Shown here: positions 118 to 58,300 of the stretch, in pieces
Layout: each line of letters starts with the position of its first letter
How positions within the stretch are numbered: position 1 is the stretch's first letter
Assembly (NCBI GenBank): GCA_900543975.1
Contig: UQTI01000004.1
Coordinates: forward strand, 1,474 to 65,473
Origin: an uncultured Prevotella sp.
GTDB taxonomy: Bacteria; Bacteroidota; Bacteroidia; Bacteroidales; Bacteroidaceae
Direction of reading: 5' to 3'
DNA: 64,000 nucleotides
The notes under the pieces: generated by a model
Databases searched by the model: none
What the model was told of the DNA's origin: nothing
The model's input: only the letters and a program-made list of their open reading frames with translations
Program-made: the position numbers and the translations under genes

Positions 118-267
118 TTTTGTTGTTTTGTGCCATGCAATGGCACGGTTAAAAAAACAAGTGTGCCGGACGGTCCCGACACACTTGTTTTTATCGTTTT
201 TGTTGCTTTAACATGTTATGTTGCGGTCACGCGCTGTGTCCGCGCAAGAAGGGTGCGCGGGGAGAGA

Positions 268-2019
268 TCAGTCGGCGATGCCGAGATCTTTCTCGATGGC
301 GGCAATCTTCTCTGTGGCCTCGGCGTTGCAACGGGTGTAGCAGCCTGCACACTTCATTGTGCCCTTTACCTCAATATAGAACTTGATCTTGGGCTCTGTG
401 CCTGAAGGACGCACGCTCACCTTGGTGTCGTCGTCGCAGAACCACTGGAGCACGTTGCTTGTGGCGGGCATGTCGAGCTTGGTCACGGTGCCGTCGGCTG
501 CCTTCTGCTCGAGAGTCTGATAGTCTTTCCAGAGCACCACCTTGCTGCCGCCGAGCTCTGCGGGAGGATTCTCGCGGAAGCGTGTCATCATGGCCTTGAT
601 CTCGTCGGCGCCGCTCTTTCCGGGGCGCACCACGTTGACGGTAAACTCTTTAGAGAAGCCATACTCGAGATAGATGTCCATGAGCAGGTCGTAGAGCGTC
701 TTGCCCTGGTCCTTGGCGTAGGCGCAGATCTCGGCCAGCAGAGAGCATGCCGACACGGCGTCCTTGTCGCGCACGAAGTCTTCAGCGAGGAAGCCGTAGC
801 TCTCCTCACCACCGCCGATATATTTCTGCTTGCCCTCAGAGAGAGCGATCTCGCGGGCGATCCACTTGAAGCCTGTGTAGCAGTCGCGCATCTCGATGTG
901 CTGCTTCTCGGCGATCTTGCGTATTACCTCGGTGGTCACGATGGTCTTCACGATGAAGTCGGTGGGCTGCATCTTGCCTGTCTTGATGCGGTTGGTGATG
1001 ATGTAATAGAGGAAGATGAGACAGGTCTGGTTGCCGTTGATCAGGATCCACTCGCCCTTGTCGTTCTTGCAAGCCATGCCCACGCGGTCGGCGTCGGGGT
1101 CGCTGGCCATCACGATGTCGGCATCGAGCTCCTTGGCGTCGCGCAGAGCCAGGGTCAGGGCCTCTCCGTTCTCGGGGTTGGGGCTCTTGACGGTGGGGAA
1201 GTCGCCGCTCTTGACCATCTGCTCCTCAACGCAATGAACGTTGTCGAAGCCCCACGCCTTGAGCGAGCGCGGGATCATGGCCATGCCTGTGCCGTGGAGC
1301 GGTGTGTAGACGATCTTGAGGTCGTGCTGGCGCTTGATGACCTCGGGGTCGATGGAGAGGGTCTTCACCTCTTCGAGGTAGACCTTGTCGATGTCTTCGC
1401 CGATGATCTGGATGAGGGTCTTGTTGCCTTCAAACTTCACGTCCTCGATCTGCACCTTGTTAACCTCGTCGATGATGCCTGTGTCGTGGGGAGCGAGCAC
1501 CTGAGCGCCGTCTTCCCAGTAGGCCTTGTAGCCGTTATACTCGCGCGGGTTATGAGATGCCGTGATGTTGACACCTGCCTGGCAGCCCAGATGGCGTATG
1601 GCGAAGGAGCACTCGGGTGTGGGGCGCATGTCGTCGAAGAGGTAGACCTTGATGCCGTTGGCTGAGAAGATGTCGGCCACGGTCTCGGCGAACAGGCGGC
1701 TGTTGTTGCGGCAGTCGTGGCACACAACAACGGCAACCTCCTCGCGCTGTGCGAAATTTTTCTTCAGATAGTTGGCGAAGCCCTGTGTGGCCATGCCCAC
1801 GGTGTATATGTTCATGCGGTTGCTGCCGGCACCCATGATGCCGCGCAGACCGCCTGTTCCAAACTCCAGGTCTTTGTAGAAACACTCAATGAGGTCGGTC
1901 TTGTCGGCCTTGTCGAGCATTGCCTGCACGTCGGCACGTGTTGACTCGTCGAAAGAAGGTGTGAGCCACTTCTCTGCTTTTGCCACACACTGGGCAATGA
2001 GTTCTGCATTATTTTCCAT
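268..2019 (-). CDS. pgm: phosphoglucomutase/phosphomannomutase family (alpha-D-phosphohexomutase)
   Basis: 583 aa ORF with the active-site motif GVNITASHNPREYNGYK and the GGLRG loop. Length matches PgcA-type phosphoglucomutases. Confidence 0.85.
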   Translation of the reverse strand: MENNAELIAQCVAKAEKWLTPSFDESTRADVQAMLDKADKTDLIECFYKDLEFGTGGLRGIMGAGSNRMNIYTVGMATQGFANYLKKNFAQREEVAVVVCHDCRNNSRLFAETVADIFSANGIKVYLFDDMRPTPECSFAIRHLGCQAGVNITASHNPREYNGYKAYWEDGAQVLAPHDTGIIDEVNKVQIEDVKFEGNKTLIQIIGEDIDKVYLEEVKTLSIDPEVIKRQHDLKIVYTPLHGTGMAMIPRSLKAWGFDNVHCVEEQMVKSGDFPTVKSPNPENGEALTLALRDAKELDADIVMASDPDADRVGMACKNDKGEWILINGNQTCLIFLYYIITNRIKTGKMQPTDFIVKTIVTTEVIRKIAEKQHIEMRDCYTGFKWIAREIALSEGKQKYIGGGEESYGFLAEDFVRDKDAVSACSLLAEICAYAKDQGKTLYDLLMDIYLEYGFSKEFTVNVVRPGKSGADEIKAMMTRFRENPPAELGGSKVVLWKDYQTLEQKAADGTVTKLDMPATSNVLQWFCDDDTKVSVRPSGTEPKIKFYIEVKGTMKCAGCYTRCNAEATEKIAAIEKDLGIAD

Positions 2020-2197
2020 AAGATTATTATTTGTTTAATGTTAATATTAATACCAATGTTAGGTGCAAAGATAATGAGAATAAAAGACAACACAAAGAAT
2101 TGACGCTACATTTTTTGCGTCACGAAACGAAAATGTTGCTTCTTTTGCCGCTTTTTTATTGCTTCTTTGCCGCTTCTTTAGCGTTTTTAGCGCTTTT

Positions 2198-2530
2198 TTA
2201 TCGCAACTCGGGCACGATGGCGAAGAACACGAGGTCTTCGGTGCCGTCGTTTGCCATGTAATGGGCGTGGCCTTTGGGGCAATAGTGGACCTGACCCGGG
2301 CCCACGGTTTCCACCACGTCGTCATAATGGCATGTTGCCACGCCGCTGAGCACATAGATCACCTCACAGTTGGTCTCATGTGTGTGCAGACCTGTTGAAG
2401 CTCCTGCGGGGAGAATGTTTTTCATTATCTTACATGTGTCGTCGCCGAAAGCGCGACAAACGAACAGGCCTTTTCCACCCTTGAAGCCGTCGATGTTGGC
2501 GGCAGGAATTTTTGAAAAATCTATTACCAT
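2198..2530 (-). CDS. cupin domain protein
   Basis: 110 aa ORF with a His-rich cupin-like metal-binding pattern (GLHTHETNCEVIYVLSG ... HYCPKGHAHY). Confidence 0.55.
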   Translation of the reverse strand: MVIDFSKIPAANIDGFKGGKGLFVCRAFGDDTCKIMKNILPAGASTGLHTHETNCEVIYVLSGVATCHYDDVVETVGPGQVHYCPKGHAHYMANDGTEDLVFFAIVPELR

Positions 2531-2591
2531 AATATATTTTTATATGTGTTTTGTTGTGAACCACGGTTTTTTGCAGGTTCAGATGTTATTT

Positions 2592-4376
2592 TCAGTTTCT
2601 TTTCGACTTCTTTTTCAGTTCGAGCTTGGGAATTTTCACCTTCGTGCCTTCTGTCACCTCCTTGCCGTTGAGGGCTTCGACATAACACTCCATGCCTTCA
2701 CCCAGATGGGCGCGGCTGATGGAAGCGAGCGTCTGCCCCCGGCGTGCCACAACGACCTGTGCCACACCTGTTATGCGGTAGGCACCTGTCCTGACGCGCG
2801 GGTCGGAATTGTAAGAAGAGGGTTGGGCGGTTGCCTGTCGGGAGCCTTTAGGTTGGGCTGACGGGCCGTGGGCCGCTGCCGACGGTTTGGCGGCAGGAGC
2901 AGGGCGGTTGGCAGCAGGTTTTGCGGGTTTAGGTTCTGACGGGGCGTTGGATGAGCCTTGAGGGGCGCTGGCTTGAGGGGCTGCGGCTGACGGGGCGTTG
3001 GCAGATTTAGACAGGGTGCTGCCTTGAGGGGCGGTTCCCTGAGAGGTGCTGCCTTGCGGGGCGGTTGCTTGCGGGGCGGTTGCTTGAGAGGCGTCTGTTG
3101 GCGCCGTCTGGTCTTTCGTCGCAGCCAGACTGTCTTGTTCAGGCTCGAAGGCAGACCTTTCCTGAAGCATTATGGGGGTGGGTTCAGAGGCCAGGTAGAA
3201 GCAGCCTGCTCCTATCGTTGCAAGCAGCATGACGACACACAGGGCGAGCACCCAGAGCCACAGGCGCATGCGGCGCACGCGCTTCGTGAGCACGAAGTTG
3301 GCGTTCTTCAGCTTGCGGTTCTCGTTGGTGTAGACGAAGCTTTGCTGCTTCATGTCAAACACCTGCTTGCGCAGGTCGTTGGCTATGGAAAGGGCGTCGC
3401 GCAGCTGCTTGTTCCCGGAACCGTCGGCGGCTTGGGAAGAGGCGGTCGAGAGCTGCTTTGACGAGTCGGAAAGGCGCTCCGAGGCCGACGACAGCTTGTC
3501 GGACACGTCGCTCAGCTTGCTCGACGCCGACGACAGCTTGTCGGAAGCATCGGTAAGCTTGTCGGCAACGACATGTATCGGGGTTGGGGCTTCTTCTTTA
3601 TTGGAACCGTCAGCTGGAGCTTTATCTTCAGCTGGGGCTTCTTCTTTAATGGAACCTTCGGCTGGGGCTTTATCTTCGGCTGGAGCTTCATCTTCAGCTG
3701 GGGCTTCTTCTTTAATGGAACCTTCGGCTGGGGCTTTATCTTCAGCGGGGGCTTCATCTTTAATGGAACCTTCGGCTGGAGCTTTATCTTCGGCTGGAGC
3801 TTCTTCTTTAATGGAACCGTCAGCTGGAGCTTTATCTTCGGCTGGGGCTTCATCTTTAATGGAACCGTCAGCTGGAGCTTTATCTTCAGCGGGGGCTTTA
3901 TCTTCAGCTGGAGTTTCATTCTCCTCATCGGCTGTTTCTTCCTCCTCAGCAGCCTCATTCTCCTCAGCAGCCTCGTTCTCTTCAGCCGTTTCGTTTTCAT
4001 CATTCTCCTCAGCCTCTTCTTCTGCCTCAGGGCTTTCGTCTAAGGAAGAAAATTCGACGCCGTCGTTAAGCACAACCGTCTCAAACTGTGCAAACGGGCT
4101 GTTCACGCGGTCGCGGAGAACCACGTCGGGAACAAACGTTATCTTGTTTCGGCTGTCGATGACGATGCGCTCACCCGTGTTCACGTCAACGCTTTCGCGG
4201 GCTCCCACGGGTGTGAGCTTGAATGTGCCAAGGCCCTTGACCTTCACAACGCCCTCTTGCTCAACGGCTTTAAGCAAGACGTCAAACATCTGGGCAACAA
4301 ACTTGTCGGCGTCGGCTTCGGGGAGAGCATAACGCTTGGTCAGCGCTTCGGAAAGCACAGGATACTTGCTGCTCAT
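2592..4376 (-). CDS. HU-like DNA-binding domain / acidic tandem-repeat / transmembrane / LysM-type C-terminal domain protein (HU-CCDC81-like architecture)
   Basis: N-terminal ~100 aa resemble HU (KVKGLGTFKLTPVGARESVDVNTGERIVI). This is followed by about 7 copies of the 16-aa repeat EAPAEDKAPAEGSIKE, a heptad-like DKLSxAS repeat, one hydrophobic TM helix (WLWVLALCVVMLLATIGAGCFYLA), a Pro/Gln/Ala-rich linker and a C-terminal LysM-like motif (YRITGVAQVVVARRGQTLASISRAHLGE...VKIP). It overlaps the upstream HU gene by 4 nt (ATGA). Confidence 0.75.
   Translation of the reverse strand: MSSKYPVLSEALTKRYALPEADADKFVAQMFDVLLKAVEQEGVVKVKGLGTFKLTPVGARESVDVNTGERIVIDSRNKITFVPDVVLRDRVNSPFAQFETVVLNDGVEFSSLDESPEAEEEAEENDENETAEENEAAEENEAAEEEETADEENETPAEDKAPAEDKAPADGSIKDEAPAEDKAPADGSIKEEAPAEDKAPAEGSIKDEAPAEDKAPAEGSIKEEAPAEDEAPAEDKAPAEGSIKEEAPAEDKAPADGSNKEEAPTPIHVVADKLTDASDKLSSASSKLSDVSDKLSSASERLSDSSKQLSTASSQAADGSGNKQLRDALSIANDLRKQVFDMKQQSFVYTNENRKLKNANFVLTKRVRRMRLWLWVLALCVVMLLATIGAGCFYLASEPTPIMLQERSAFEPEQDSLAATKDQTAPTDASQATAPQATAPQGSTSQGTAPQGSTLSKSANAPSAAAPQASAPQGSSNAPSEPKPAKPAANRPAPAAKPSAAAHGPSAQPKGSRQATAQPSSYNSDPRVRTGAYRITGVAQVVVARRGQTLASISRAHLGEGMECYVEALNGKEVTEGTKVKIPKLELKKKSKRN
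3578..3905. repeat. in-frame 48-nt tandem repeat (about 7 copies) inside the HU-LysM gene
   Basis: Repeated unit ...ggggcttcttctttaatggaaccttcggctggggctttatcttc... encoding EAPAEDKAPAEGSIKE on the minus strand. Copies are near-identical. Confidence 0.7.
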
Positions 4377-4660
4377 AGGTCGCCTCCTTTCTTCAGGCGC
4401 TGCTTGACCTCGGCAAGGGGCTTGAACACAAGCACCAGTTTGGGGGGCACCATCAGCTTCTGCCCCGTGGACGGATTTACAACAATGCGCTCCATGCGGT
4501 TTTTCAGTTCGAAAGAACCGAACGACGGCACGGTGACGCTCTCGCCTTCATCGAAGCGCGAAGCCATGGCTTCTATTACGCATCGCACAAGGCGTTGGGT
4601 GTTGTCTTGCGAATAGCCGCTACGTTGCGACAGCTCAGCGATAAAGTCTTTATTGTTCAT
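4373..4660 (-). CDS. HU family DNA-binding protein
   Basis: 95 aa with a typical HU/IHF fold sequence (MNNKDFIAELSQRSGYSQDN...FGSFELKNRMERIVVNPSTGQKLMVPPKLVLVFKP). Confidence 0.85.
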   Translation of the reverse strand: MNNKDFIAELSQRSGYSQDNTQRLVRCVIEAMASRFDEGESVTVPSFGSFELKNRMERIVVNPSTGQKLMVPPKLVLVFKPLAEVKQRLKKGGDL

Positions 4661-4723
4661 CTGTCAGGGGGATTTTTTATTGAACTTTTTGCGTGTTCAG
4701 GGGTTAAGGAAAAACATGGGGGG

Positions 4724-6028
4724 CTACTTGTCGGCCAGCTCGGCATAGAGGTCGAACTCGTCGCTGTCTACTATGCGCACGCGGTGGAACGAGCCCACGC
4801 GCAAGCGGCGGTCGGCAGCAGGGATGAGCACCTCGGGGTCGACCTCGGGCGAACAGTACTGGGAGCGGGCAATGTAATAGTCGCCCTCCTTGCGGTCTAT
4901 TATGACCTTCATCTCCGTGCCCACCTTCGCAGCCTCTACCTCGGCAGAGATCTGCTGCTGAACGGCCATGAGGCGGTCCAGACGGTCTTGTTTCACCTCG
5001 GCGGGAACGTCGTCTTCATAGTGCTCGGCGCTGTAGGTGCCCTCCTCTTCCGAATAGGCGAAGGCGCCCATGCGCTCGAAGCGTGCCCAGCGCACAAACG
5101 ACACCAGCTCCTCAAAGTCGGCCTCGGTCTCGCCGGGGAAGCCCACGAGCAGCGTGGTGCGGATGTTGATGCCCGGCACGCGGCGACGGATCTCGGCGAT
5201 GAGGTCCATGGTCTCTTGCTTGGAGACGTGGCGGTGCATGCGGGTGAGCACGTTGTCGGAGATGTGCTGCAGGGCGATGTCGAGATACTTGCACACGTTG
5301 GGACGCGACGCTATGACGTCGAGCAGCTCCAGGGGAAACTGGTTGGGGTAGGCATAATGGAGGCGGATCCACTCTACGCCCTTTATGTCGGCCATGTGGT
5401 CTATGAGCTCGGCGATGTGGCGCTTGCCGTCGATGTCGACGCCATAATAGGTCAGCTCCTGGGCAATGACCTGTATCTCCTTCACGCCTGAAGCCACCAG
5501 CTCACGCACCTCGTCAAGGATCTCGCTCTCGGGACGGCTGACGTGCTTGCCCGTGATGATGGGTATGGCGCAATAGGCGCAATGGCGGTCGCAGCCCTCG
5601 CTGATCTTGAGGTAGGCATAATGGCGCGGGGTGGTGAGCACACGACGGCCCTCACACGACGGCGTGATGTTGCTGCCGAGGTCCTTGATGAGGTTCTTGT
5701 AGTCGAACTTGCCATAATATTTGTCGACATGAGGAATCTCCTCCTCAAGCTCCTTGCGGTAACGCTGTGAGAGACAGCCCATGACAAAGAGTTTCTTCAA
5801 GCGGCCTTCTTCCTTGGCCTTGGCAAACTCAAGAATGGTGTCTATGCTTTCCTGCTTGGCGTCTTCAATGAAGCCACAGGTGTTTATCACGGCAATCTCG
5901 CCCTGAGGACGCTTGGAATCGTGAGCGCAACGGTAGCCCGCGGCCTCAAACTGACGCATAAGGCTCTCGCTGTCGACAAGGTTCTTGGAACAACCCATCG
6001 TTATAATATCTACATGACCTGACTTCAT
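4724..6028 (-). CDS. rimO: ribosomal protein S12 methylthiotransferase RimO (radical SAM MTTase)
   Basis: 434 aa. N-terminal MTTase domain with GCSKNLVDSE, a CxxxCxxC radical SAM cluster (CDRHCAYCAIP) and a C-terminal TRAM domain. Confidence 0.9.
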   Translation of the reverse strand: MKSGHVDIITMGCSKNLVDSESLMRQFEAAGYRCAHDSKRPQGEIAVINTCGFIEDAKQESIDTILEFAKAKEEGRLKKLFVMGCLSQRYRKELEEEIPHVDKYYGKFDYKNLIKDLGSNITPSCEGRRVLTTPRHYAYLKISEGCDRHCAYCAIPIITGKHVSRPESEILDEVRELVASGVKEIQVIAQELTYYGVDIDGKRHIAELIDHMADIKGVEWIRLHYAYPNQFPLELLDVIASRPNVCKYLDIALQHISDNVLTRMHRHVSKQETMDLIAEIRRRVPGINIRTTLLVGFPGETEADFEELVSFVRWARFERMGAFAYSEEEGTYSAEHYEDDVPAEVKQDRLDRLMAVQQQISAEVEAAKVGTEMKVIIDRKEGDYYIARSQYCSPEVDPEVLIPAADRRLRVGSFHRVRIVDSDEFDLYAELADK

Positions 6029-6075
6029 TGGTGTTTATCTTTTTTCAATATATCTAAATCTAAATTGTTGTTGTC

Positions 6076-6205
6076 TTTGCTGGGGTGTTTTGTTTGCAGG
6101 GGCATTGTTGTTTGCAGGGGCGTTGTTGTTTGCCGGGATGTTGAAATGGGGGTTGAAGGGATGTTGAAAGGGGTGTTGAAAGAGGTGTTGAAGGGGCGTT
6201 GCATG
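6076..6205. repeat. degenerate tandem repeat, about 9 units of GGrYGTTGwwrg(g)
   Basis: gcattgttgtttgcagg ggcgttgttgtttgccgg gatgttgaaatgggg gttgaaggg atgttgaaagg ggtgttgaaaga ggtgttgaagg, located between rimO and ftsY. Confidence 0.5.
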
Positions 6206-6247
6206 GTTTGCGTTGCGAAGCGTTCTGCAAGCCCCTCCTTTTTTATT
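6193..6247 (+). terminator. intrinsic-terminator-like hairpin on the plus strand (GGGGCGTTGCA...TGCAAGCCCC followed by TCCTTTTTTATT)
   Basis: A 10-bp GC-rich stem followed by a T-run on the + strand only. It overlaps the ftsY stop codon. No + strand protein gene lies upstream. Confidence 0.4.
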
Positions 6248-7202
6248 ACTTGTTCTCGAAAAGCGAGTTGACAAACTGCTTCTTGTTGAACAGCTGCAGA
6301 GCCTCCATCGACTCGCCCAGACCGATATATTTTACAGGCACCTTGAGCTGGTCGCTGATGCCGATGACCACGCCGCCCTTGGCTGTGCCGTCGAGCTTGG
6401 TGATGGCGAGGGAGGTGACGGGCGTTACGGCCGCAAACTGCTTGGCCTGCTCAAAGGCGTTCTGCCCCGTGCTGCCGTCGAGCACAAGCATGACCTCGTC
6501 GGGAGCGGTGGGAACGACCTTCTTCATGACGTCCTTGATCTTCTTCAGCTCGTTCATAAGGCCCACCTTGTTGTGAAGGCGGCCAGCCGTGTCGATGAGC
6601 ACCACGTCGGCGCCGTTGGCCTTGGCAGAGGAGATGGTGTCGAAAGCCACAGACGCAGGGTCGGAACCCATCTGCTGCTTGATCACGGGCACGCCCACAC
6701 GTTCGCCCCAGATGCAGATCTGCTCCACGGCGGCGGCACGGAAGGTGTCGGCGGCGCCAAGATAGACCTTCTTGCCGGCTTTCTTAAACTGGTATGCGAG
6801 CTTTCCAATGGTTGTGGTCTTGCCCACGCCGTTCACGCCGACGACAAGGATGACGTAAGGGGTGTGGTCGGAGGGCAGCTCCCAATCGTCGTTGTCGGTG
6901 GTGTTGTTCTCTGAGAGCAACGAAGCGATCTCTTCGCGAAGGATGCGGTTGAGCTCGGAGGTCGACACATACTTGTCGCGGGCAACGCGCTCCTCGATGC
7001 GTTTGATGATCTTGAGCGTGGTGTCAACACCCACGTCGGATGTTATGAGCACCTCCTCAAGGTTGTCAAGCACATCGTCGTCGACGGTCGACTTGCCGGC
7101 AATGGCACGCGCCAGCTTGTCAAACACGCTGTGTTTCGTCTTCTCAAGACCACCATCAAGTATTTCTTTCTTGTTTTTGTTGAAAAGTCCAAATATTCCC
7201 AT
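6246..7202 (-). CDS. ftsY: signal recognition particle receptor FtsY
   Basis: 318 aa with an NG domain and SRP GTPase motifs (GVNGVGKTTTIGKLA, DTAGR, TKLDGTAKGG). Confidence 0.9.
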   Translation of the reverse strand: MGIFGLFNKNKKEILDGGLEKTKHSVFDKLARAIAGKSTVDDDVLDNLEEVLITSDVGVDTTLKIIKRIEERVARDKYVSTSELNRILREEIASLLSENNTTDNDDWELPSDHTPYVILVVGVNGVGKTTTIGKLAYQFKKAGKKVYLGAADTFRAAAVEQICIWGERVGVPVIKQQMGSDPASVAFDTISSAKANGADVVLIDTAGRLHNKVGLMNELKKIKDVMKKVVPTAPDEVMLVLDGSTGQNAFEQAKQFAAVTPVTSLAITKLDGTAKGGVVIGISDQLKVPVKYIGLGESMEALQLFNKKQFVNSLFENK

Positions 7203-7435
7203 TGATTGAAATTTTATTTATTGCAAAATTAAGAAATAAAGCTGAAATAGAAAAGCATTTTCCGTAGATTAATGCAGATAAACCCATAAATAAAGGCAAA
7301 TTAGAGCATTTTGACTAACCAACAAGCACAATCGGCTCCTTTTATATTTACATTCTCAATATTTTTCACTTTTTCTTGTGAAAAAACCTTGATTTGAGAA
7401 ACTTTTCGTAAATTTGTACCCAAAGCAACGTTATT

Positions 7436-8618: not shown

Positions 8619-9935
8619 CTATTTTATTATCTCGCAAACGGTTTTCAGACCTTTGATCTTTTCGTTCTTTACCTTTGAGAGAAGAGCCTTGACAGCTGAT
8701 GCGCTGACAGCCACATAAGCGTAACGTTCCTTAACGTCGATCTTGCCTATGAGGGAGCTGTCAAGACCTCCCTTCTTGCAGAGGAAGCCCACAATGTCGC
8801 CACGGCTGATCTTGTCTTTCTTGCCCTTGCCTATGTAGATGGTCTTCATGCGGGGAGCAGCAGGAAGAGGAAGGGGCTCGGGGAGAGCAACCTCTGCAGA
8901 GGGACCGACATACTGAGGCAACGTTTCCTTCGGACCAAGGATGAAGAGGGAGGTGCCTTCGGCCTGCCAACGGGCTGTACGGCCCACACGGTGGATGTAG
9001 GCTTCGGGCGTCTCGGGCAGATGGTAATGGACAACATGGGCTATGTTGTCGATGTCAAGACCACGAGAGGCAAGGTCGGTACACACCATGACGTTGGCTG
9101 ATCCGTTGGAAAAATTGTAGAGGGCTGCCTCGCGTTGCTTCTGGTCCAAGCCGCCATGGAAGGCGCTCACAACGAAGCCTTTGCCCTCAAGGTAACAGGC
9201 TATGCGCTCCACGCTCTCGCGATGGTTCACAAACACGATGGTGCTGTCGGCTGACGTGGTGCAAAGGTAAGCGTAGAGGGTGTCGAGCTTGTCGTTGACA
9301 GGGCTGTGAAGAACCTGAAGCTCTATGCGCTGGCGCACGTCGGCGCTGTCTTCAAGATAGTTGACAAGCTCCACGTTCTGCATGTTGACGAAACGGGGTA
9401 TGCTGTCGGCGTTGGTGGCTGAGAGGAGGATGTGGCGGTTGGCAAACTTGAGCTTGCCCATGACGCTCATCATCTCGCCGCTGAAGCCCATGTCGAGACA
9501 TTTGTCGAACTCGTCGATCACAACTGTGCGCACCTTCAAGGGCGAGATGTTTTCCTTGTCAAGATGGTCGTTAAGACGGCCTGGGGTGGCGAAGACGATG
9601 TGGGGACGCAGGATGCGCAGCTCACGGTGCTCGTCCATGGCCATGCGACCGCCAAAGGCGGCGTAGCCTCTCACGCCGCAACCCATCTGCTGAAGCACCT
9701 TGGCCGACTGCAGGGCGAGCTCACGCCCTGGCACGATGACGATGGCCTGGACGTCGTCGACGGCGGGGTTCACGGCGCCGACAAGCGGCAGGAGGTAAGC
9801 AAGGGTTTTGCCTGTGCCTGTGGGCGACAGAACGACGATGTCGTGGTTGGTGCGCTCAAAGGCGCTGGCTGTGGCCTTCTGCATGGCGCTGAGCGTGCTT
9901 ATGCCCAGCTTTCTGTATATCTCTTTATTGTCCAT
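8619..9935 (-). CDS. DEAD-box ATP-dependent RNA helicase with a C-terminal DbpA-type RNA-binding domain
   Basis: 438 aa with a Q motif, motif I (SPTGTGKT), a DEFD box, SAT, an HRVGRTAR-like motif VI, and a C-terminal DbpA domain (GDIVGFLCKKGGL...). Confidence 0.9.
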   Translation of the reverse strand: MDNKEIYRKLGISTLSAMQKATASAFERTNHDIVVLSPTGTGKTLAYLLPLVGAVNPAVDDVQAIVIVPGRELALQSAKVLQQMGCGVRGYAAFGGRMAMDEHRELRILRPHIVFATPGRLNDHLDKENISPLKVRTVVIDEFDKCLDMGFSGEMMSVMGKLKFANRHILLSATNADSIPRFVNMQNVELVNYLEDSADVRQRIELQVLHSPVNDKLDTLYAYLCTTSADSTIVFVNHRESVERIACYLEGKGFVVSAFHGGLDQKQREAALYNFSNGSANVMVCTDLASRGLDIDNIAHVVHYHLPETPEAYIHRVGRTARWQAEGTSLFILGPKETLPQYVGPSAEVALPEPLPLPAAPRMKTIYIGKGKKDKISRGDIVGFLCKKGGLDSSLIGKIDVKERYAYVAVSASAVKALLSKVKNEKIKGLKTVCEIIK

Positions 9936-33734: not shown

Positions 33735-36029
33735 ATGGTCAAAATTACAAAAGAGGCCGCCCTGGAGTATCATAACAACGGGCGCCCTGGAAAAATTGAA
33801 GTAAAACCGACAAAACCCTACCACACGCAGACCGACCTCAGCCTGGCCTATTCGCCTGGTGTGGCCTATCCGTGTCTGGAGATTCAGGAAAATCCCGACT
33901 CTGTTTACAAGTACACAGACAAGGGCAACTTGGTAGCTGTCATCTCTAACGGCACAGCTGTGTTGGGATTGGGCGACATCGGCGCAATGAGCGGCAAGCC
34001 AGTAATGGAAGGCAAGGGTCTGTTGTTCAAGATCTACGGCGGCATCGACGTGTTCGACATCGAGGTGGCCGAGAAAGACCCCGAGAAGTTCTGCGAGGCC
34101 GTGGAGAAGATTGCGCCCACATTCGGCGGCATCAACCTTGAGGACATCAAGGCTCCCGAGTGTTTCTACATCGAGGAGCGCTTGAAGAAGAACCTCGACA
34201 TACCCGTCATGCACGACGACCAGCACGGCACAGCCATCATTTCTGCTGCCGGTCTGAAGAACGCTCTTGAGGTGGCTGGCAAGAACATCGCCGATGTCAA
34301 GATTGTGGTCAATGGTGCTGGAGCAGCTGCCATTAGCTGCACCAAGCTCTATGTGGCATTGGGAGCAAAGGTAGAGAACATCGTGATGCTCGACTCGAAG
34401 GGCGTCATCACCTCCGACCGTGAGAACCTCACACCACAGAAGAAGCTCTTCGCTACCGACCGCCGCGACGTCCACACCCTCAAGGAGGCCGTTGTCGGAG
34501 CCGACGTGTTTGTAGGCCTCTCCAAGGGCAACGTTCTGTCACAAGACATGATACGCTCCATGGCCGACAGCCCCATCGTCTTCGCCCTCGCCAACCCCGT
34601 GCCTGAAATCAGCTACGAGGATGCCATGGCAAGCCGTCCCGACGTGCTCATGTCTACAGGCCGAAGCGACTATCCCAACCAGATCAACAACGTGATCGGA
34701 TTCCCCTACATCTTCCGCGGAGCTCTCGACGTTCACGCCAAAGCCATTAACGAAGAGATGAAGATGGCTGCCGTCAATGCCATCGCCGATCTGGCCAAGC
34801 AGCCTGTACCCGATGTCGTGAACGATGTTTATCATGTCAACAACCTCACCTTCGGTCCTAAATATTTCATCCCGAAACCCGTCGACCCACGCCTCATAAC
34901 AGAGGTGAGCGCAGCCGTGGCAAAGGCAGCCATAAAGAGCGGCGTGGCAAGAAAGACCATTACCGACTGGGATGCCTACAAGAAGAGCCTCATGGAGCTG
35001 CTCGGTCAGGAGTCGAAGCTCACACGCAAGCTCCACGACACGGCTCGTCTGCACCCGCAACGCGTAGTGTTTGCCGAGGGAGGACACCCGACCATGATGA
35101 AGGCTGCCGTCCAGGCCAAGACCGAGGGCATCTGCCAGCCCATCCTGCTCGGCAACCCCGACCGTCTGAACCGTCTGGCCCAGCGCCTGAAGCTCGACCT
35201 CTCCGACATAGAGATCATCGACATGCGTGCAGACCAGGAGCAGGGCCGTCGTGCCACATACGCCAAGCACCTCGCAAAGAAGCGTGCCCGTCAGGGCTAC
35301 AACTTCGAGGAGGCTTATGACAAGATGTACGAACGCAACTATTTCGGAATGATGATGGTTGAGACAGGCGAGGCCGATGCCTTCATAACGGGTCTCTACA
35401 CCAAATATTCAAACACCATCAAGGTGGCAAAAGAGGTGGTGGGCATTCGTCCAGAATACAAGACCTTCGCTACGATGCACATCCTCAACACAAAGAAGGG
35501 AACCTTCTATATCGCCGACACGCTCATAAACCGTCACCCCGACGAGAACGTGCTGATGGACGTTGCCAAGCTGTCGGCCCACACCGTACAGTTCTTTAAC
35601 GAGGAGCCACACATCGCCATGATCAGCTACTCCAACTTCGGTACCGACGAGGTGGGCTCGCCAATGAAGGTTCACCTGGCTGTTGAAGAGATGCAGAAGC
35701 AGTATCCTTACCTCGCCATCGATGGTGAGATGCAGGTCAACTTCGCCCTTAACAAGGAGTTACGCGACGACAAGTATCCGTTCTCACGCCTCAAGGGTCT
35801 TGATGTCAACACACTCGTGTTCCCCAACATGAGCAGCGCCAACAGCAGCTACAAGCTGCTCCAGGCTCTTGACCCCGATGCCGAGATCATTGGCCCGATC
35901 CAGATGGGTCTGAACAAGCCTATCCACTTTACCGACTTCGAGAGCTCGGTTCGCGACATCGTCAACGTTACAGCTGTTGCCGTGATCGACGCCTACGTTG
36001 ATAAGGTGAAGAAGAACGCCGACAACTAA
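33735..36029 (+). CDS. maeB: NADP-dependent malic enzyme (malic enzyme domain plus phosphotransacetylase-like C-terminal domain)
   Basis: 764 aa with malic enzyme N- and NAD-binding domains (GLGDIGA) and a C-terminal PTA-like domain. Confidence 0.9.
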
Positions 36030-49920: not shown

Positions 49921-49948
49921 TATAATCTAAAAAAATCGCGTGAGCTAC

Positions 49949-50812
49949 ATGAGACAACTAAAAATAAGCAAATCGTTTACCAACCGCGAGAGCGACGCTC
50001 TCGACAAGTACCTACAAGACATCGGGCATGAGGAACTTCTTTCGCTCGATGAAGAGGTTGAATTGGCCCAACGCATAAAGGAGGGCGACAACAAAGCGCT
50101 TGAAAAGCTCACACGCGCAAACCTGAGGTTTGTTGTGTCGGTTGCCAAACAGTATCAGAACCAAGGGCTCAGCTTGCCAGACCTCATCAACGAGGGCAAC
50201 ATAGGATTGATCAAAGCAGCGAAGAAGTTTGACGAAACACGCGGCTTCAAGTTCATATCCTACGCCGTGTGGTGGATAAGACAAAGCATCATGCAAGCCA
50301 TTGCTGAGCAAGGACGACCCGTGCGCCTGCCGCTCAACCAGGTGGGGTCGGTAAACAAGATAAACAAGGCGCTGAGCAAGTTTGAACAAGAGCACGAACG
50401 ACGCCCGAGCATCGACGAGATAGCATCGAGCACAGACCTGCCACAGGAAAAGGTGGAGGAAGCGATAAAGGCCAACACGCGTCAGGTGTCGATGGACGCG
50501 CCGTTTAAAGAGGGCGAAGAGAACAGCCTGATAGACGTGCTTTCAAGCGACGAGACCCCTTCAACCGATGCCGAGCTGCTCAAGCAGTCGCTTCGCGAGG
50601 AGATGTCGATGGCGCTGAACGTGCTCAACGAGCGCGAACGCAATGTCATCATGGCATTCTACGGCATAGGCCAACCCGAGATGTCGATGGACGAAATAGG
50701 CAAACGCTATGGGCTCACACGCGAGCGTGTAAGACAGATCAGAGAGAGGGCGTTGCGCCGTCTGCGTCAGAACACGCACAACAAGCTGTTAAAATCGTAT
50801 CTCGGCAAGTAA
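49949..50812 (+). CDS. rpoD: RNA polymerase primary sigma factor (Bacteroidetes sigma-AB)
   Basis: Start taken at the ATG ([10 protein letters not shown]...). Regions 2-4 are conserved ([22 protein letters not shown]-like [23 protein letters not shown]). Confidence 0.9.
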
Positions 50813-50850: not shown

Positions 50851-51426
50851 ATGATTTTAAAAAAATTACTCCTTGTCCTTGTTGCCTTCCTCATGGTTGG
50901 AAGCGTGGCCAAGGCAGCAGATAAGACAAAGCAGGTTTATGTATATGGCATGGCCATCTCGTTTAACGACTCTACCGTTTATATGACAGACATACAGACG
51001 CTCGATTCGGCTGCCGTGAGAAGCAAGACGGGATTCCTCTACGGACGCGACAACTACTCTTATCAGCTGCGCGACTACTTGAAGAGCAAGGGGTTTCAAA
51101 CACCCACTTGCGAGACAACCTTCTCGGTTAAAAAGAAAGACATCGAGAAAAAGTTTATTGCCGCAAAGAAACGTTACGGCAACGGCAAATACACGCTCAA
51201 ACACATCACACCAAACGAGTTCCAATATACGGTCATAACGCTCGATGTGGACGAAGAAAAGCCCATGACAAAGGAGGAGCGCAAGGCCATGAAGGTTCAG
51301 GCCAAGGAAGCGAAAGCCAAGGCTAAAGCCGAAGCTAAAGCAAAAGCCGAGGAGCGCAAGGCCCTGAAAAAAGAGCTGAAAGACAAGAAGAAGGGCCCGA
51401 AGCCTGAGGAACAAAGACCTGAATAA
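50851..51426 (+). CDS. secreted hypothetical protein with a C-terminal Lys/Ala/Glu-rich tail
   Basis: 191 aa with a signal peptide (MILKKLLLVLVAFLMVGSVAKA) and a C-terminal KAKAKAEAKAKAEERKALKKELKDKKK tail. Confidence 0.5.
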   Translation: MILKKLLLVLVAFLMVGSVAKAADKTKQVYVYGMAISFNDSTVYMTDIQTLDSAAVRSKTGFLYGRDNYSYQLRDYLKSKGFQTPTCETTFSVKKKDIEKKFIAAKKRYGNGKYTLKHITPNEFQYTVITLDVDEEKPMTKEERKAMKVQAKEAKAKAKAEAKAKAEERKALKKELKDKKKGPKPEEQRPE

Positions 51427-51467: not shown

Positions 51468-52931
51468 ATGACCATGCACTCAGAGAAATCATACAATTAC
51501 TCAATTGCAGATTTCAACATTGGCATATCGTTCAGCAAAGATGGAATCAACGACAAAAACTTGATTCCATCTTTTCGCGTTTTTGAACAAGACGCCCCAA
51601 ACGGCGACCTGCTCTTCTCCCTTCATGTCGATGACAGCCTAAAACCAATAGCCAAGGAACGACGGGAGAGAATTCGCGAGTTTGACACAGGCAACGGCAA
51701 AACCGTCGTTGACAGAATTGACGACGGAGGCTACCAATATATCATTAAAGATATCATGGGACGCAGCTGCTGCTTGCTACAGGCCGACAAGGAGTTTAAA
51801 CATTGCTTTTGTGCGCTCAACGGCAACTATAACATGCGCAGCTTCGGACTGAACAACGCGCTCATGCTTATCTTTGCCTTTAACGGATGCCGCCGACAGA
51901 CCTTGCTTATACACGCCTCGCTCGTGAGACACAACGGCAAGGGCTACGCTTTTATCGCGAAAAGCGGAACGGGCAAGAGCACGCAGGTGAGCATGTGGTT
52001 GAGACATATACCCCATTGCGACTTGATGAACGACGACAACCCCATTGTGCGAATGATAGACGGCAAGGCGTTCATTTATGGCAGCCCGTGGAGCGGCAAA
52101 ACACCTTGTTACCGTAACGTGAAGGCTCCGCTTGGCGCCATTACGCGAATAAACCGCGCCACAACAAACAGGGTGGAACAGCTGAAACCTGTAGAGGCGT
52201 TTGCGTCGGTTCTGCCTTCGTGCTCATCGATGAAATGGGACGAGGACATTTTCAACGCCATCTGCAACACGGTAACAAAAATAATAGAGACAACGGGCAT
52301 TTATGTGCTCCATTGTCTGCCAAACAGAGAGGCTGCCGAGGTGTGTGCTGCCGCCATCGTGCCAGGCTTCAAGCTTGAGCCAAACGCCAACAAGCCTTAC
52401 ACAAAGCCCGAAACGACGGAGCAGGAGCCAGGGTCGTTTCCTGTGTTATGTGCCGAGGTGAAGGAGGTTCTGTTTCAGAACGCACAGTTCTTGCCCGAGG
52501 TTGTGAAACTGCTCGACGAGGGCCACACCGTGACGCTAAGGCTGAAAGGCTACAGCATGAGACCGTTCCTTGAAAACGGACGCGACAAGGCGCTCCTTAT
52601 AAAGGCCACAACCATACGCAAAGGCGACGCCGTGCTGGCTGAGGTATCGAAAGGGGTGTTTGTGCTTCATCGCATCGTGAAGATTAAAGGCGACGACGTG
52701 ACCCTTCGCGGCGATGGCAACCTGGGCGTGGAGAGATGTAAAAAAAGCGATGTGAAGGGCTTTGTTATCGGCTTCTACCGCAAGGGACGAACGACCATTG
52801 ACAAGACAAACCACCCGAAATGGCTCATCTACTCGTTTGTGTGGACCTCGCTCCTACCCTTACGCCGCTATTTGCTCGCCTTTTATCGCAGAATATGGTT
52901 GAAAATTTTCCCAAACAAAATAAATAACTAA
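51468..52931 (+). CDS. fusion protein: HPr-kinase-like P-loop domain (N-terminal) plus S26/S24 signal-peptidase-like serine peptidase domain (C-terminal)
   Basis: N-terminal domain: P-loop IAKSGTGKSTQVSMWL and LMNDDNPIV, resembling the HprK C-domain. C-terminal domain: KGYSMRPFL (SPase box B-like Ser) and HRIVKIKGDDVTLRGDGN (box D-like Lys), followed by a hydrophobic tail. Confidence 0.65.
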   Translation: MTMHSEKSYNYSIADFNIGISFSKDGINDKNLIPSFRVFEQDAPNGDLLFSLHVDDSLKPIAKERRERIREFDTGNGKTVVDRIDDGGYQYIIKDIMGRSCCLLQADKEFKHCFCALNGNYNMRSFGLNNALMLIFAFNGCRRQTLLIHASLVRHNGKGYAFIAKSGTGKSTQVSMWLRHIPHCDLMNDDNPIVRMIDGKAFIYGSPWSGKTPCYRNVKAPLGAITRINRATTNRVEQLKPVEAFASVLPSCSSMKWDEDIFNAICNTVTKIIETTGIYVLHCLPNREAAEVCAAAIVPGFKLEPNANKPYTKPETTEQEPGSFPVLCAEVKEVLFQNAQFLPEVVKLLDEGHTVTLRLKGYSMRPFLENGRDKALLIKATTIRKGDAVLAEVSKGVFVLHRIVKIKGDDVTLRGDGNLGVERCKKSDVKGFVIGFYRKGRTTIDKTNHPKWLIYSFVWTSLLPLRRYLLAFYRRIWLKIFPNKINN

Positions 52932-52932
52932 T

Positions 52933-53199
52933 ATGAAAGCAAAGAAAGGTTTTAAACTTAGAGATGTGTGCGGCGAAAAGATTATCGTTGCCGAAGGCAA
53001 GGAGAATATCGATTTCAGCAACATTATAAGCATGAACGAGACAGCTGCCTATCTATGGGAACAGCTCTACGGCAAAGAGTTTTCTGTAGACAACATGGCC
53101 GACCTGCTCACAGAACAATATGACATAGATAGGGAAAGTGCCCTTGCCGACTGCCATGAGCTCGCAAAGCAATGGAAAGAGGCGGGAATAACGGAATGA
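52933..53199 (+). CDS. PqqD-family protein (RiPP recognition element-like peptide chaperone)
   Basis: 88 aa (FKLRDVCGEKIIVAEG...NETAAYLWEQL...FSVDNMADLLTEQYDID), a typical PqqD/RRE pattern. Its start is 1 nt after the upstream stop. Confidence 0.65.
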   Translation: MKAKKGFKLRDVCGEKIIVAEGKENIDFSNIISMNETAAYLWEQLYGKEFSVDNMADLLTEQYDIDRESALADCHELAKQWKEAGITE

Positions 53200-53428: not shown

Positions 53429-54628
53429 TCACTCCTTACGGTTCCATATATTGATAATCTTGCGCCTTATAACCACCGTGTTAACCAAGGTCACAAAGAG
53501 GAAGAGCAGAAGACCAAGAAGGACGGTCGGGAGAAACGACGGCTCAGAGATGTCGGGCAAGAGAAGCGTCAGTACATCCATATAACAGCTACGGGCCACG
53601 AGCACAAGAACCACCACAAGGACAAGCACACAGAAATTGAGACCTGTGGCAAGCAACTGGTAGGGACGCGACACACTTGACGGACTGTAACCTATGAGCA
53701 GGAGGTTCTCAAGCTTGTAAGAGTTTTTCTGAACCAAAAGATAGATGCTCAGCATGAGGATGTAGAAACTTAAGGCTGAGATGGTAAGACCAACAACAAC
53801 AACGATGAAGACCATGAGACGCAAGAAAGAGGTCATCTTCTCGGCGTTAGCATCGTTGTTTTCGGCCTCATAACCCTTGCTGTCAAGATACTTGGAAAAC
53901 TGTCCGTCGGCAGGATTGTTTACATCCATAATGAGACGTGTGGGCTCATCGGGAGCATCGGGAGCGTAACGGCTGTTGCTCCATTTCATAAATGCTTCGG
54001 GCACAAGAATGGAACTGATGCGGTTGGAGAAACCTATTACACGCCCCTTGAAACGATCATGAAGACCATTGCCGTTGATGAAGATATTGAAGTCGATCAT
54101 GCTTACCAAACCGTCAGAAAGCTTTGGTAGCGAGTGAGATTGTGCGAACCCAAAATTATACATCGTGAGATATGAACGAGGCAAGATTATGGGAACCGTA
54201 GTGTCGCCATCACGATAATGCCAATCGGCGCCGGACACAACGACAAAGCGGTCGGGCACACTCTCAAAGAACAGTTCCGAGTTAAGAATGTTGACGCCGT
54301 TAACGCTCATCGTGGCGTCAACCTTATAACCTGTGGAGATGAAACGACCTGCCGACCGGACAAAGGGCTGAGAGGTAAGGTCGTCGATCTCGCTGTTGCT
54401 GAACGTGTTTGACCGTCCCGACATGGTGGTGGCCATGCCTATTTTCTTGCTTACGATAACATAGTCGGCCTTCATGAAGCTGTCGTTCTGGGTGAACACA
54501 GGCAGCACGTCACGATAAAACTGATAGCCAAAGAGCACGATGAACATGCCCAACAGATTGGCAAAAAAGAAACCGACAAACTGCGGCACGCTAACATGCT
54601 GCCGCAACAACTTCCATACAAGGCTCAT
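53429..54628 (-). CDS. ABC transporter permease, FtsX-like
   Basis: 399 aa with an N-terminal TM, a large extracytoplasmic domain and 3 C-terminal TM helices (FtsX/MacB topology). It overlaps the upstream ATPase gene by 4 nt. Confidence 0.7.
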   Translation of the reverse strand: MSLVWKLLRQHVSVPQFVGFFFANLLGMFIVLFGYQFYRDVLPVFTQNDSFMKADYVIVSKKIGMATTMSGRSNTFSNSEIDDLTSQPFVRSAGRFISTGYKVDATMSVNGVNILNSELFFESVPDRFVVVSGADWHYRDGDTTVPIILPRSYLTMYNFGFAQSHSLPKLSDGLVSMIDFNIFINGNGLHDRFKGRVIGFSNRISSILVPEAFMKWSNSRYAPDAPDEPTRLIMDVNNPADGQFSKYLDSKGYEAENNDANAEKMTSFLRLMVFIVVVVGLTISALSFYILMLSIYLLVQKNSYKLENLLLIGYSPSSVSRPYQLLATGLNFCVLVLVVVLVLVARSCYMDVLTLLLPDISEPSFLPTVLLGLLLFLFVTLVNTVVIRRKIINIWNRKE

Positions 54629-55269
54629 AGCTTAAATGTTTTTTCATAGTCCAACTTCATGTGCTTACCGATGCTGGTAACGATAACGCCGGCTCCCAGA
54701 CGATGGGCTTCGCACATCATTATGTCGGCCATGATGGCGGCGTTGTCGTCGTCAAGATGGCTTATAGGCTCGTCAACTACAACAAAGTCGAAAGGTTGTG
54801 CCAACGCTCTGATCATCGCCACACGTTGCTGCTGACCAAACGACATGTGGCCAATCTTTGCATCGAGCTTGTCGGCAACGCCAAGACGCTCAAACCACTC
54901 TTTCAACACGCTCTCCTTCTGAAAGCCTGTCAGGTTGTTCTTTATGGCAACGTTCTCCCAAGCCGTGAGCTCGGGAAACAAGCGCAACTCTTGAAACAGA
55001 TAGCTGATGTGAGCAAGGCGCAGGTCGACCCATTGGTCCACAGACAGGGTTTTGGCGCAGGTCGTGTCAAAGAGCACGCTACCGTCATAGTCGTGACGAT
55101 AGCCCACGATGTAGCTGCAGAACGTGCTCTTGCCCTTGCCACTATCAGCTTCCACGAGGTAGAGATGGCCCTTGCTGAAGCTTATGTCTTTGCCCCACAC
55201 CTCAGAACAAAGGTCTGTACGACCAGAGAAGACATGAGGCATAACAGCCTGAAAACTAATCTTTTCCAT
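54625..55269 (-). CDS. ABC transporter ATP-binding protein
   Basis: 214 aa with Walker A (ADSGKGKST), a signature-like motif (MSFGQQQRVAM) and Walker B (FVVVDEP). Confidence 0.85.
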   Translation of the reverse strand: MEKISFQAVMPHVFSGRTDLCSEVWGKDISFSKGHLYLVEADSGKGKSTFCSYIVGYRHDYDGSVLFDTTCAKTLSVDQWVDLRLAHISYLFQELRLFPELTAWENVAIKNNLTGFQKESVLKEWFERLGVADKLDAKIGHMSFGQQQRVAMIRALAQPFDFVVVDEPISHLDDDNAAIMADIMMCEAHRLGAGVIVTSIGKHMKLDYEKTFKL

Positions 55270-57490: not shown

Positions 57491-58300
57491 TCAGACCTCA
57501 ATCTCAAGTCCATCGTAAGCCAAGCCCACGTTTCTTGGAAGTTTGGCCTGTGCTTCTGTCTCTAAACCAATATCATGATTAAAATGAATTAACCATGTTT
57601 GCTCCGCTCCAACCTTATGGGCGAAAGCCACGGCATCGGCAACCAACTGGTGCGAATGGTGAGGCTTTTCAAAGCGCAAGGCGTTGACAACGAGCGTGCG
57701 CACACCTTTAAGATAATGGAGCTCGTCTTCTGACATGCTCTTCATGTCGGTTATATAAGCAAAATTGCGACCTATGCGGAAACCCAAGATGGGAAGTTTG
57801 CCATGAAAAACGTTTATCGGCAAGACCTCTATGTCGCCAACAGAAAACGGCCTGTGGGCATGAATAGGGTTGAGCGAGAGGCTTGGGACGCCAGGATAAA
57901 GCTTTAGCTTGAGCCACGGCAGGCTCTTCTCTATCCTTTGCATGAGACCATGGGGAAAGCAGTAAGGCATGCATTGGCGCACATGACGCAAGGTCTTGCG
58001 ATCGCCATAAAGGGGTATGGTGCCAAAACGACAATAAGGCCGAAGGTCGTCTATTCCACCGACATGATCATAGTGCATGTGTGTGAGCAACACGCCATCG
58101 ATGCGTCGGAAAGGCAACGGCATTAGTTGTTGGCGTATGTCAGGACCACAATCGATGAGCAGACGTGTTGTATCGGTCTCCACCAAAGCGGCGCAACGCA
58201 AGCGGCTGTCATGATGGTTCGTGCTGCGACACACCTTGCATGAGCATCCTAACGTAGGTACGCCACATGAGGTTCCCGTACCAAGGAATGTTATCTTCAT
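57491..58300 (-). CDS. MBL-fold metallo-hydrolase
   Basis: 269 aa with an HxHxDH motif (THMHYDHVGG). Confidence 0.8.
   Translation of the reverse strand: MKITFLGTGTSCGVPTLGCSCKVCRSTNHHDSRLRCAALVETDTTRLLIDCGPDIRQQLMPLPFRRIDGVLLTHMHYDHVGGIDDLRPYCRFGTIPLYGDRKTLRHVRQCMPYCFPHGLMQRIEKSLPWLKLKLYPGVPSLSLNPIHAHRPFSVGDIEVLPINVFHGKLPILGFRIGRNFAYITDMKSMSEDELHYLKGVRTLVVNALRFEKPHHSHQLVADAVAFAHKVGAEQTWLIHFNHDIGLETEAQAKLPRNVGLAYDGLEIEV

Follow-up and report, generated by a model that had tools for sequence, protein, structure and literature searches.

Organization of the locus

We analyzed a 64,000-nt stretch of DNA from an uncultured Prevotella sp. (assembly GCA_900543975.1, contig UQTI01000004.1, positions 1,474 to 65,473), hereafter the window, which carries on its forward strand a gene for a 487-aa protein with a kinase-like and a peptidase-like domain, immediately followed by a gene for an 88-aa PqqD-family protein of the type that docks peptides made on ribosomes and modified after translation (RiPPs) as a RiPP recognition element (RRE). 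An initial annotation, made from the sequence alone, had described this pair and suggested a minimal pathway that phosphorylates, cleaves and exports a peptide. The best reading of our results is that the pair constitutes an RRE-dependent peptide-maturation system, which would be related to lasso-peptide tailoring sets and would employ a new leader peptidase. The features of the two genes are:

51468..52931, + strand: fusion protein of 487 aa, comprising the kinase-like domain, a disordered linker and the peptidase-like domain
51468..52367, + strand: predicted PEPCK/HprK-type P-loop (ScmC-like) domain, residues 1-300, assigned from weak NCBIfam matches, PF27840 on homologues, Foldseek and the PEPCK motif profile
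51912-51914, + strand: codon of H149, invariant
51963..51983, + strand: P-loop S166-G-T-G-K-S-T172, invariant in fused homologues (S166-S171 across the family)
52029..52037, + strand: N188-D189-D190, invariant, in the place of the HPr kinase catalytic 'ADD'
52380..52478, + strand: low-complexity inter-domain linker, residues 305-337, with a predicted local distance difference test score (pLDDT) below 50 and unconserved alignment columns
52479..52931, + strand: predicted clan-SF (S24/S26) peptidase-like domain with two C-terminal amphipathic helices (residues 450-486)
52554..52556, + strand: codon of Ser363, the putative nucleophile in G-x-S-M-x-P, invariant and aligned with the SpsB GESM box
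52668..52670, + strand: codon of His401, the putative general base in an H-R box, invariant and aligned with the SpsB catalytic-Lys box
52710..52721, + strand: G415-D-G-N418, a 'GDN'-like box, invariant
52933..53199, + strand: PqqD-family protein of 88 aa (RRE-type peptide docking), Pfam PF05402

Within the 487-aa protein the motifs occupy residues 166-172 (SGTGKST), 188-190 (NDD), 361-367 (GYSMRPF), 401-404 (HRIV) and 415-418 (GDGN); the motifs quoted by the initial annotation are thereby confirmed. Fusions of 485-487 aa belonging to the same 90% identity cluster (1482 members) occur on dozens of independent contigs, so the fusion is real and not an assembly artefact; a frameshift introduced by sequencing was rejected on the same grounds. 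The linker differs in length among the fused lineages.

The N-terminal kinase-like domain

The N-terminal half finds its best profile hidden Markov model (HMM) match in NCBIfam ScmC (TIGR04249, E 1e-5), where its 25.1 bits fall below the equivalog cut-off of 125, and it matches HprK_rel_A and HprK_rel_B weakly (E about 0.01). The Pfam models Hpr_kinase_C (PF07475) and PEPCK_ATP leave the window protein unmatched, and one relative matches Hpr_kinase_C at E 0.0086, below the cut-off. Homologues bear a precomputed Pfam PF27840 ('ScmC') assignment, mostly flagged as weak and unflagged in some. The domain lies outside the curated HprK and ScmC equivalog families.

Searches of the PDB with a full-length profile gave no useful match, and domain profiles gave weak matches to LexA, SpsB, SEC11 and PEPCK, so that structure prediction was needed. 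An AlphaFold2 model built from an alignment of 16 fused homologues (mean pLDDT 82) was compared with known structures using Foldseek, which returned ATP-PEPCK as the best match of the N-terminal domain (E 4e-7), together with HPr kinase/phosphatase (1knx, E 2e-5). The family profile also aligns to the PEPCK kinase-1a motif 'HAS..GLSGTGKTT'. Across 39 diverse family members, H149, S166-G-T-G-K-S171, N188-D-D190 and P207-W-S-G-K211 are invariant, and S166-T172 is invariant in the 16 fused homologues as well. Judging by motif order, NDD would correspond to the catalytic 'ADD' of HPr kinase. Since the model has the P-loop fold of PEPCK and the sequence carries G-x-S-G-x-G-K-S/T followed further on by an acidic D-D, the N-terminal domain is predicted to be a PEPCK/HprK-type P-loop phosphotransferase domain.

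The C-terminal peptidase-like domain

The residues G-x-S363-M, H401-R402, G415-D-G-N418 and E422 are invariant in 39 standalone and 16 fused homologues, and in an HMM alignment to Staphylococcus aureus SpsB, Ser363 coincides with the GESM box and His401 with the Lys that is catalytic in the KR box. Because of these invariant boxes and the SpsB alignment, we assign the domain to clan SF, with a putative catalytic Ser/His pair and not Ser/Lys. Ser/His is typical of SEC11/SipW-type S26 peptidases, whereas S24 autoproteases use Ser/Lys. The signal-peptidase-like boxes of the initial annotation are therefore borne out as regards the fold, but not as regards the Ser/Lys pair that its 'KGYSM' and 'K' boxes implied.

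The domain has the beta fold common to LexA and signal peptidases, and its best structural matches are LexA, lambda cI and UmuD'. Against Pfam Peptidase_S24/S26 the window domain scores 20.2-22.2 bits, just under the gathering threshold of 23.3, while relatives pass it (33.8 bits for P0161 and 25.1 bits for L046) and 32 of 39 members match at E <= 0.1. Two C-terminal amphipathic helices with invariant W and R (KW..YS..W..L.P.RR.LL) are conserved in the family and are without counterpart in LexA or signal peptidases.

Neither the fusion alignment nor the AlphaFold2 model contains a hydrophobic segment between the P-loop and peptidase domains, and the standalone homologues, of about 155 aa, have hydrophilic N-termini. 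Since no such segment follows the cytoplasmic ATP-binding domain, the peptidase-like domain would have to work in the cytoplasm, unlike a signal peptidase. A canonical type I signal peptidase, with a membrane anchor and a catalytic domain outside the cytoplasm, was rejected accordingly: the anchor is lacking and the domain is fused to a cytoplasmic one.

The PqqD partner and protein X

The 88-aa protein matches Pfam PqqD (PF05402) at 57.4 bits (cut-off 23.4; E 1.9e-15), covering positions 1-66 of the 67 in the profile, as the initial annotation had proposed; an identical protein is named 'PqqD family protein [Prevotella sp.]' at NCBI and is found on at least 1000 contigs. The NCBIfam lasso_PqqD models score 24.8 and 17.1 bits, below their respective cut-offs of 70 and 80. 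One base separates the stop codon of the fusion gene (TAA, 52929-52931) from the ATG at 52933, a spacing tight enough for translational coupling.

A conserved partner that had escaped the initial annotation lies directly upstream of the fusion gene:

50851..51426, + strand: protein X, 191 aa, in which an alignment shows a Sec-type signal peptide, a conserved domain (about 100 aa) and a Lys-rich tail

The conserved domain of X contains the motifs SFNDSTVY.TDIQ and RDNYSYQLRDYL and matched no Pfam or NCBIfam family. Its low-complexity tail, rich in Lys, Ala and Glu (KAKAKAEAKAKAEERK...), varies greatly in length among species and is missing in some.

Distribution and locus layouts

At the level of 50% identity representatives the family comprises 10,534 members at E <= 1e-3 and 653 at E <= 1e-30. 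A scan of one genome per species yielded at least 587 loci, from which 80 species loci were kept, 78 of them being used for synteny counts. The 80 loci come mostly from Bacteroidales (Prevotella, Hoylesella, Hallella, Palleniella, Alloprevotella, Paraprevotella, Muribaculaceae, Paludibacteraceae, Rikenellaceae and Bacteroides), the exceptions being four metagenome bins whose titles give Clostridia, Paratractidigestivibacter, Oscillibacter or simply 'bacterium'. A peptidase-like gene and a PqqD gene are both found within 6 kb in 69 of the 78 species-representative loci; the trio is thus syntenic in relatives, an outcome on which the initial annotation had staked its interpretation.

Two layouts were distinguished. 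Type A (56 loci, Prevotellaceae), to which the window belongs, has the order X, kinase, peptidase, PqqD; Type B (16 loci) has kinase, peptidase and PqqD together with NTP_transf_5 (PF14907) and/or an ABC exporter. The Type A unit opens with X, which is conserved there and stands directly upstream of the kinase-like gene in 56 of the 78 species loci, with a median gap of -1 nt and, most commonly, a 4-nt overlap. X was not found in Type B loci. The Type B exporter is a 545-aa ABC_membrane/ABC_tran protein without a C39 protease domain, which would leave the S24/S26-like protein as the sole protease of the Type B cassette. Tight linkage to such an exporter, which differs from the ABC pair near the window trio, is confined to Type B cassettes. 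Between the two types, PqqD is the most conserved component (median identity 48%, versus 39% for both the kinase-like and the peptidase-like proteins), with the common motif GF.LR..cGe.iivaeG...idF...islNesaa.lW, which suggests a similar ligand in both.

In all 80 species loci the kinase-like (about 300 aa) and peptidase-like (about 155 aa) proteins are encoded by separate, adjacent and often overlapping genes, and kinase-peptidase fusions make up 40 of the 153 family members analyzed. By nearest-neighbour identity the fusions are interleaved with split forms, which points to several independent fusion or fission events. The fusion noted in the initial annotation is real, but it appears to be a recurrent derived state of two adjacent genes and not the defining architecture. 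Such recurrence is good evidence that the two enzymes act jointly on one substrate. A second kind of fusion within the cassette is seen in L046 (10917-12500), where a single 527-aa open reading frame (ORF) joins an N-terminal S24/S26-like domain to NTP_transf_5.

Two further observations concern these proteins and their loci. P0228 (656 aa) joins a TruB pseudouridine synthase to a ScmC-like domain and is either a rare fusion or a run-through in gene calling. Next to the peptidase-like gene, and partly overlapping it on the opposite strand, three Type B loci have a small ORF that is conserved among them (MADNYLEKK.E.LQARKAKEQR...WKKRMDAYRKKL):

L070 9296-9517: small opposite-strand ORF
L071 1182-1451: small opposite-strand ORF
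L084 5241-5438: small opposite-strand ORF

Candidate precursor peptides

Clustering of small ORFs around Type B cassettes produced mostly noise from closely related loci. Short ORFs sharing a motif were first noticed at the Type B loci L080 (6847-6987), L082 and L058, and a profile search extended them to 64 clusters of predicted proteins of 41-56 aa. Their N-terminal half is conserved, Y-x-x-P-x-x-E-[IV]-I-x-x-E-x-E-x-x-[IL]-[LC]-x-x-S (for example KELKWYVAPAQEIIETELEGFL), and their C-terminal half is hypervariable (for example APDFGNGGRWGF, GEDGGRQGW, or acidic tails). As far as can be judged from the alignments, a conserved front with a hypervariable tail is how RiPP precursors are conserved. 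The YxxP peptides belong to no NCBIfam family, and no curated family covers them.

The peptide gene adjoins the cassette in four distinct arrangements. It follows the ABC exporter in L087, L088 and the metagenome loci L097-L103, lies 0.5-1 kb downstream of the exporter in L089-L091, and stands two genes upstream of the kinase gene in L093, L094 and L058; the contigs L095 and L096 end just upstream of the peptide. Two tandem copies are present in five of nine metagenome loci. Wherever the sequence downstream of a peptide gene was checked (L087-L096, L058 and L104), a large gene encoding 361-1223 aa begins within about 25-45 nt; its product is a lipoprotein wherever the N-terminus was read (L058, L087, L089, L091, L093 and L095) and in some cases matches Fib_succ_major, Lcl_C or Mfa-like models faintly. 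Large genes of this kind are:

L087 9119-10696: large gene downstream of the peptide
L089 9184-12225: large gene downstream of the peptide
L091 8162-11143: large gene downstream of the peptide
L093 8172-9257: large gene downstream of the peptide
L095 1256-4927: large gene downstream of the peptide
L104 7024-8505: large gene downstream of the peptide

X resembles neither these lipoproteins nor the YxxP leaders (hhalign probability for the leaders, 0.3%).

The cassette and peptide of the Bacteroides nordii type (L087 1-18141, also L088) lie near RteC, topoisomerase and DUF3945/DUF4099 genes, a set that looks like part of a conjugative transposon. In L087 the kinase gene occupies 4487-5392, the peptidase gene 5380-5820, PqqD 5869-6162, NTP_transf_5 6184-7320 and the peptide gene 9001-9141. 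A MACPF-domain gene near the L087 cassette is a hint that Type B may serve an accessory or antagonistic role.

Comparison with known systems

The module would be most like the kinase/RRE/leader-peptidase part of lasso-peptide pathways. In the lasso Bsf system, the precursor is phosphorylated by BsfK, an HprK-like kinase; BsfB1, a PqqD-type RRE, stimulates this kinase as well as the leader peptidase, and the leader carries a YxxPxL motif (PMC10368454); in lasso clusters, kinase, nucleotidyltransferase, PqqD and ABC genes co-occur (PMC7533575). Like the lasso tailoring sets (BsfK, PadeK, ThcoK, PsmK; B1, B2, N, D), the present system has an HprK-like P-loop kinase with a small PqqD RRE and, in Type B only, a nucleotidyltransferase and an ABC_membrane/ABC_tran exporter, and the Y-x-x-P of the candidate precursors recalls the YxxPxL leader motif recognized by lasso B1 RREs. 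Unlike lasso clusters, and as the initial annotation had remarked for the window, it has neither an Asn-synthetase-like cyclase C nor a transglutaminase-fold B2 in the window or in the Pfam-annotated related loci; its protease would be of the clan-SF Ser/His type; and the candidate cores are short, with no lasso-core hallmark noticed, although no systematic test was made. A lasso cluster was rejected, given the lack of C and B2 and lasso PqqD scores below the cut-offs.

The ScmC match raises a second comparison. ScmC (TIGR04249; PF27840) occurs beside a PqqD homologue, and the SynChlorMet cassette to which it belongs is defined by two radical-SAM/SPASM enzymes. No radical-SAM family is present among the window neighbours or the annotated related loci and the ScmC score lies under the equivalog cut-off, so the locus is not a SynChlorMet cassette.

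With HprK/P and ATP-PEPCK the N-terminal domain shares the predicted fold and the motif order 'H-A-S ... G-x-S-G-T-G-K-S-T ... D-D', but it has no HPr or PEP-related context, and its N-terminal beta-rich subdomain differs from the HprK N-domain. The peptidase-like domain differs from S26 signal peptidases (LepB, SpsB, SipA, SEC11/SipW) in having no N-terminal membrane anchor and in being fused or adjacent to a cytoplasmic ATP-binding domain, from S24 proteins (LexA, UmuD, lambda cI) in lacking a Ser/Lys pair, and from both groups in its two extra conserved C-terminal helices.

In the literature we found no published description of a kinase, clan-SF peptidase and PqqD combination or of their fusion, which is in keeping with the initial annotation. 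A caries metagenome survey reports a mixed Prevotella/Segatella/Hoylesella 'RRE-containing' cluster family (bioRxiv 10.1101/2025.09.04.674288), for which no gene content, product or mechanism is given; its taxa match Type A, and it may be the present locus.

Genomic neighbourhood

Genes flanking the module in the window include:

49940..50812, + strand: RpoD-like sigma-70 gene, 290 aa (Pfam Sigma70 r1_2, r2, r3 and r4)
53429-55269, - strand: FtsX-like permease/ABC ATPase pair, convergent to the trio

The neighbourhood is of a housekeeping kind (SerC-like aminotransferase, TrmO, DUF711/ACT, rpoD, PanB, PheS and CarB). Of the 56 Type A species loci, 36 have rpoD upstream of X; the gene is probably context outside the module. 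The permease of the convergent pair (399 aa) barely matches Pfam FtsX (E 0.65). The pair adjoins the trio in none of 86 other loci, an ATPase homologue lying about 8 kb away in L023, and it is not to be counted in the system; the export step that the initial annotation placed at this locus is not supported. The MFS gene and the other window neighbours were likewise rejected as companions of the trio, not being syntenic elsewhere.

No PADLOC defence-system model matches any component. A metallo-beta-lactamase-fold protein elsewhere in the window (57491-58300, - strand) has a sub-threshold match to Apyc1 (anti-Pycsar; 33 bits versus 50). The G+C content is 0.53-0.58 at positions 1-6000 and 34001-36000 and about 0.45-0.50 in most of the window.

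Proposed mechanism and alternative explanations

We propose that the fusion protein and PqqD form a cytoplasmic, leader-guided peptide-maturation module, in which: (i) PqqD, as the RRE, would dock the conserved N-terminal part of a ribosomal peptide; (ii) the PEPCK/HprK-type domain would use a nucleotide to phosphorylate a hydroxyl side chain of the peptide; and (iii) the Ser363/His401 clan-SF domain would then cut off the leader, filling the role of the Cys protease B2 in lasso pathways. The fusion would hard-wire a complex that most relatives build from the products of two adjacent genes. In Type B the same three proteins would work with the NTP_transf_5 nucleotidyltransferase and the dedicated ABC exporter, their likely substrate being the 41-56-aa peptides with a YxxP-type leader. 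The Type A locus has no exporter, transferase or peptide gene, and the secreted protein X appears to be translationally coupled instead; with no peptide gene at hand, the substrate would be encoded elsewhere or be a different one, and in the latter case the unit may have taken on another task, perhaps directed at X. Our data show the folds, the conserved residues of catalytic type, the synteny, the recurrence of fusion, and the peptide family with its linkage to sister cassettes. That the peptide is phosphorylated and cleaved, in which order, and what the substrate is in the window genome are what we infer, and we lean, though only slightly, towards leader-guided phosphorylation and cleavage as the function of the fusion and its partner.

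Several observations weigh against this interpretation. HMM support for the kinase-like domain is weak (ScmC 25 bits, cut-off 125). Inspection of the small ORFs after the PqqD gene and six-frame regular-expression and HMM scans of the window and all loci revealed no precursor-like peptide in the 64-kb window, where the initial annotation had found none near the trio either, or in the 10-kb flanks of the 56 Type A loci; the RiPP interpretation gains real support from the precursor-like peptides beside sister cassettes, but none was found for the window locus. An adjacent family peptide is present in only 3 of the 16 Type B species loci, and two metagenome peptide loci are orphans with no cassette within 7-10 kb, so that the link between peptide and cassette is real but not universal, and precursors can be encoded away from the enzymes. 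The peptide is linked to the downstream lipoprotein gene at least as tightly as to the cassette and, because this pairing holds even in the orphan L104, it may be tied to the downstream protein just as closely. Finally, the Type A unit is surrounded by housekeeping genes and seems to be inherited vertically, an unusual situation for a cluster that makes a secondary metabolite.

In an alternative explanation, Type A is a protein-processing or regulatory module, PqqD docking a segment of X before its export, or of another full-length protein, for the enzymes to modify or clip. It would account for X directly preceding the kinase-like gene, as a rule with a 4-nt overlap, in 56 of 56 Type A loci, for the lack of exporter, nucleotidyltransferase and any peptide gene, for the core housekeeping neighbourhood, and for the needlessness of a dedicated exporter if X leaves the cell by its own Sec signal peptide. 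We nevertheless judge it rather unlikely: X bears no resemblance to the peptide leaders and is not found in Type B, the high conservation of PqqD across types argues for a similar ligand in both, and the fusion, with neither a signal peptide nor a transmembrane segment ahead of its peptidase domain, could meet X only in the cytoplasm.

That the peptidase-like domain is instead a self-cleaving switch in the manner of LexA and UmuD, cutting its own chain (for example in the linker) and thereby freeing or activating the kinase-like domain, seems very improbable, even though its closest structural matches (LexA, lambda cI and UmuD'), the UmuD-like size of the standalone homologues (about 155 aa) and the disordered linker ahead of it would all suit such a role. 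The putative general base is His and not the Lys of S24 autoproteases; the linker is unconserved in sequence and length and does not exist in the majority split forms; no DNA-binding or other effector domain is present; and the constant PqqD partner points to a substrate in trans. Nor do we give much credence to Type A as a decaying, functionless remnant of Type B that has lost exporter, transferase and precursor. The missing Type B parts are what such decay would leave, but the catalytic-type residues are all invariant across the 56 Type A species loci and the 16 fused homologues, reading frames are intact, the motifs have been maintained at identities ranging over 35-73% (kinase-like) and 43-74% (peptidase-like), fusions have been kept in several lineages, and the window PqqD protein is as widespread as noted above. 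A slim chance at most attaches to this explanation.

Returning to leader-guided maturation, a broader proposal can be made, which we put forward tentatively and would not yet wager on: that Bacteroidales of the gut, mouth and rumen widely possess a new RiPP class, marked by PqqD together with a ScmC-like kinase and a clan-SF peptidase of the Ser/His type, to which NTP_transf_5 and an ABC exporter may be added. Its precursors would be YxxP peptides of 41-56 aa, and its leader peptidase an S26-type enzyme recruited to act in the cytoplasm in dependence on the RRE. The Prevotellaceae version would then be a stripped-down, sometimes fused and vertically inherited core function coupled to a secreted protein.

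Implications

Bacteroidales, Prevotella among them, are the dominant members of human gut, oral and rumen communities, and few of their ribosomal peptide pathways have been characterized. The module described here occurs in hundreds of species and would combine a peptide kinase with a protease type that, to our knowledge, is not used as a RiPP leader peptidase, and sister cassettes such as that of Bacteroides nordii now supply candidate substrates that can be tested. If the proposed function is correct, it would represent a new enzymatic solution for leader removal, raise the question of the role played by the precursor-less core-genome version in Prevotellaceae, and reveal that major commensals make a further family of modified peptides, which might act as signals or in antagonism.

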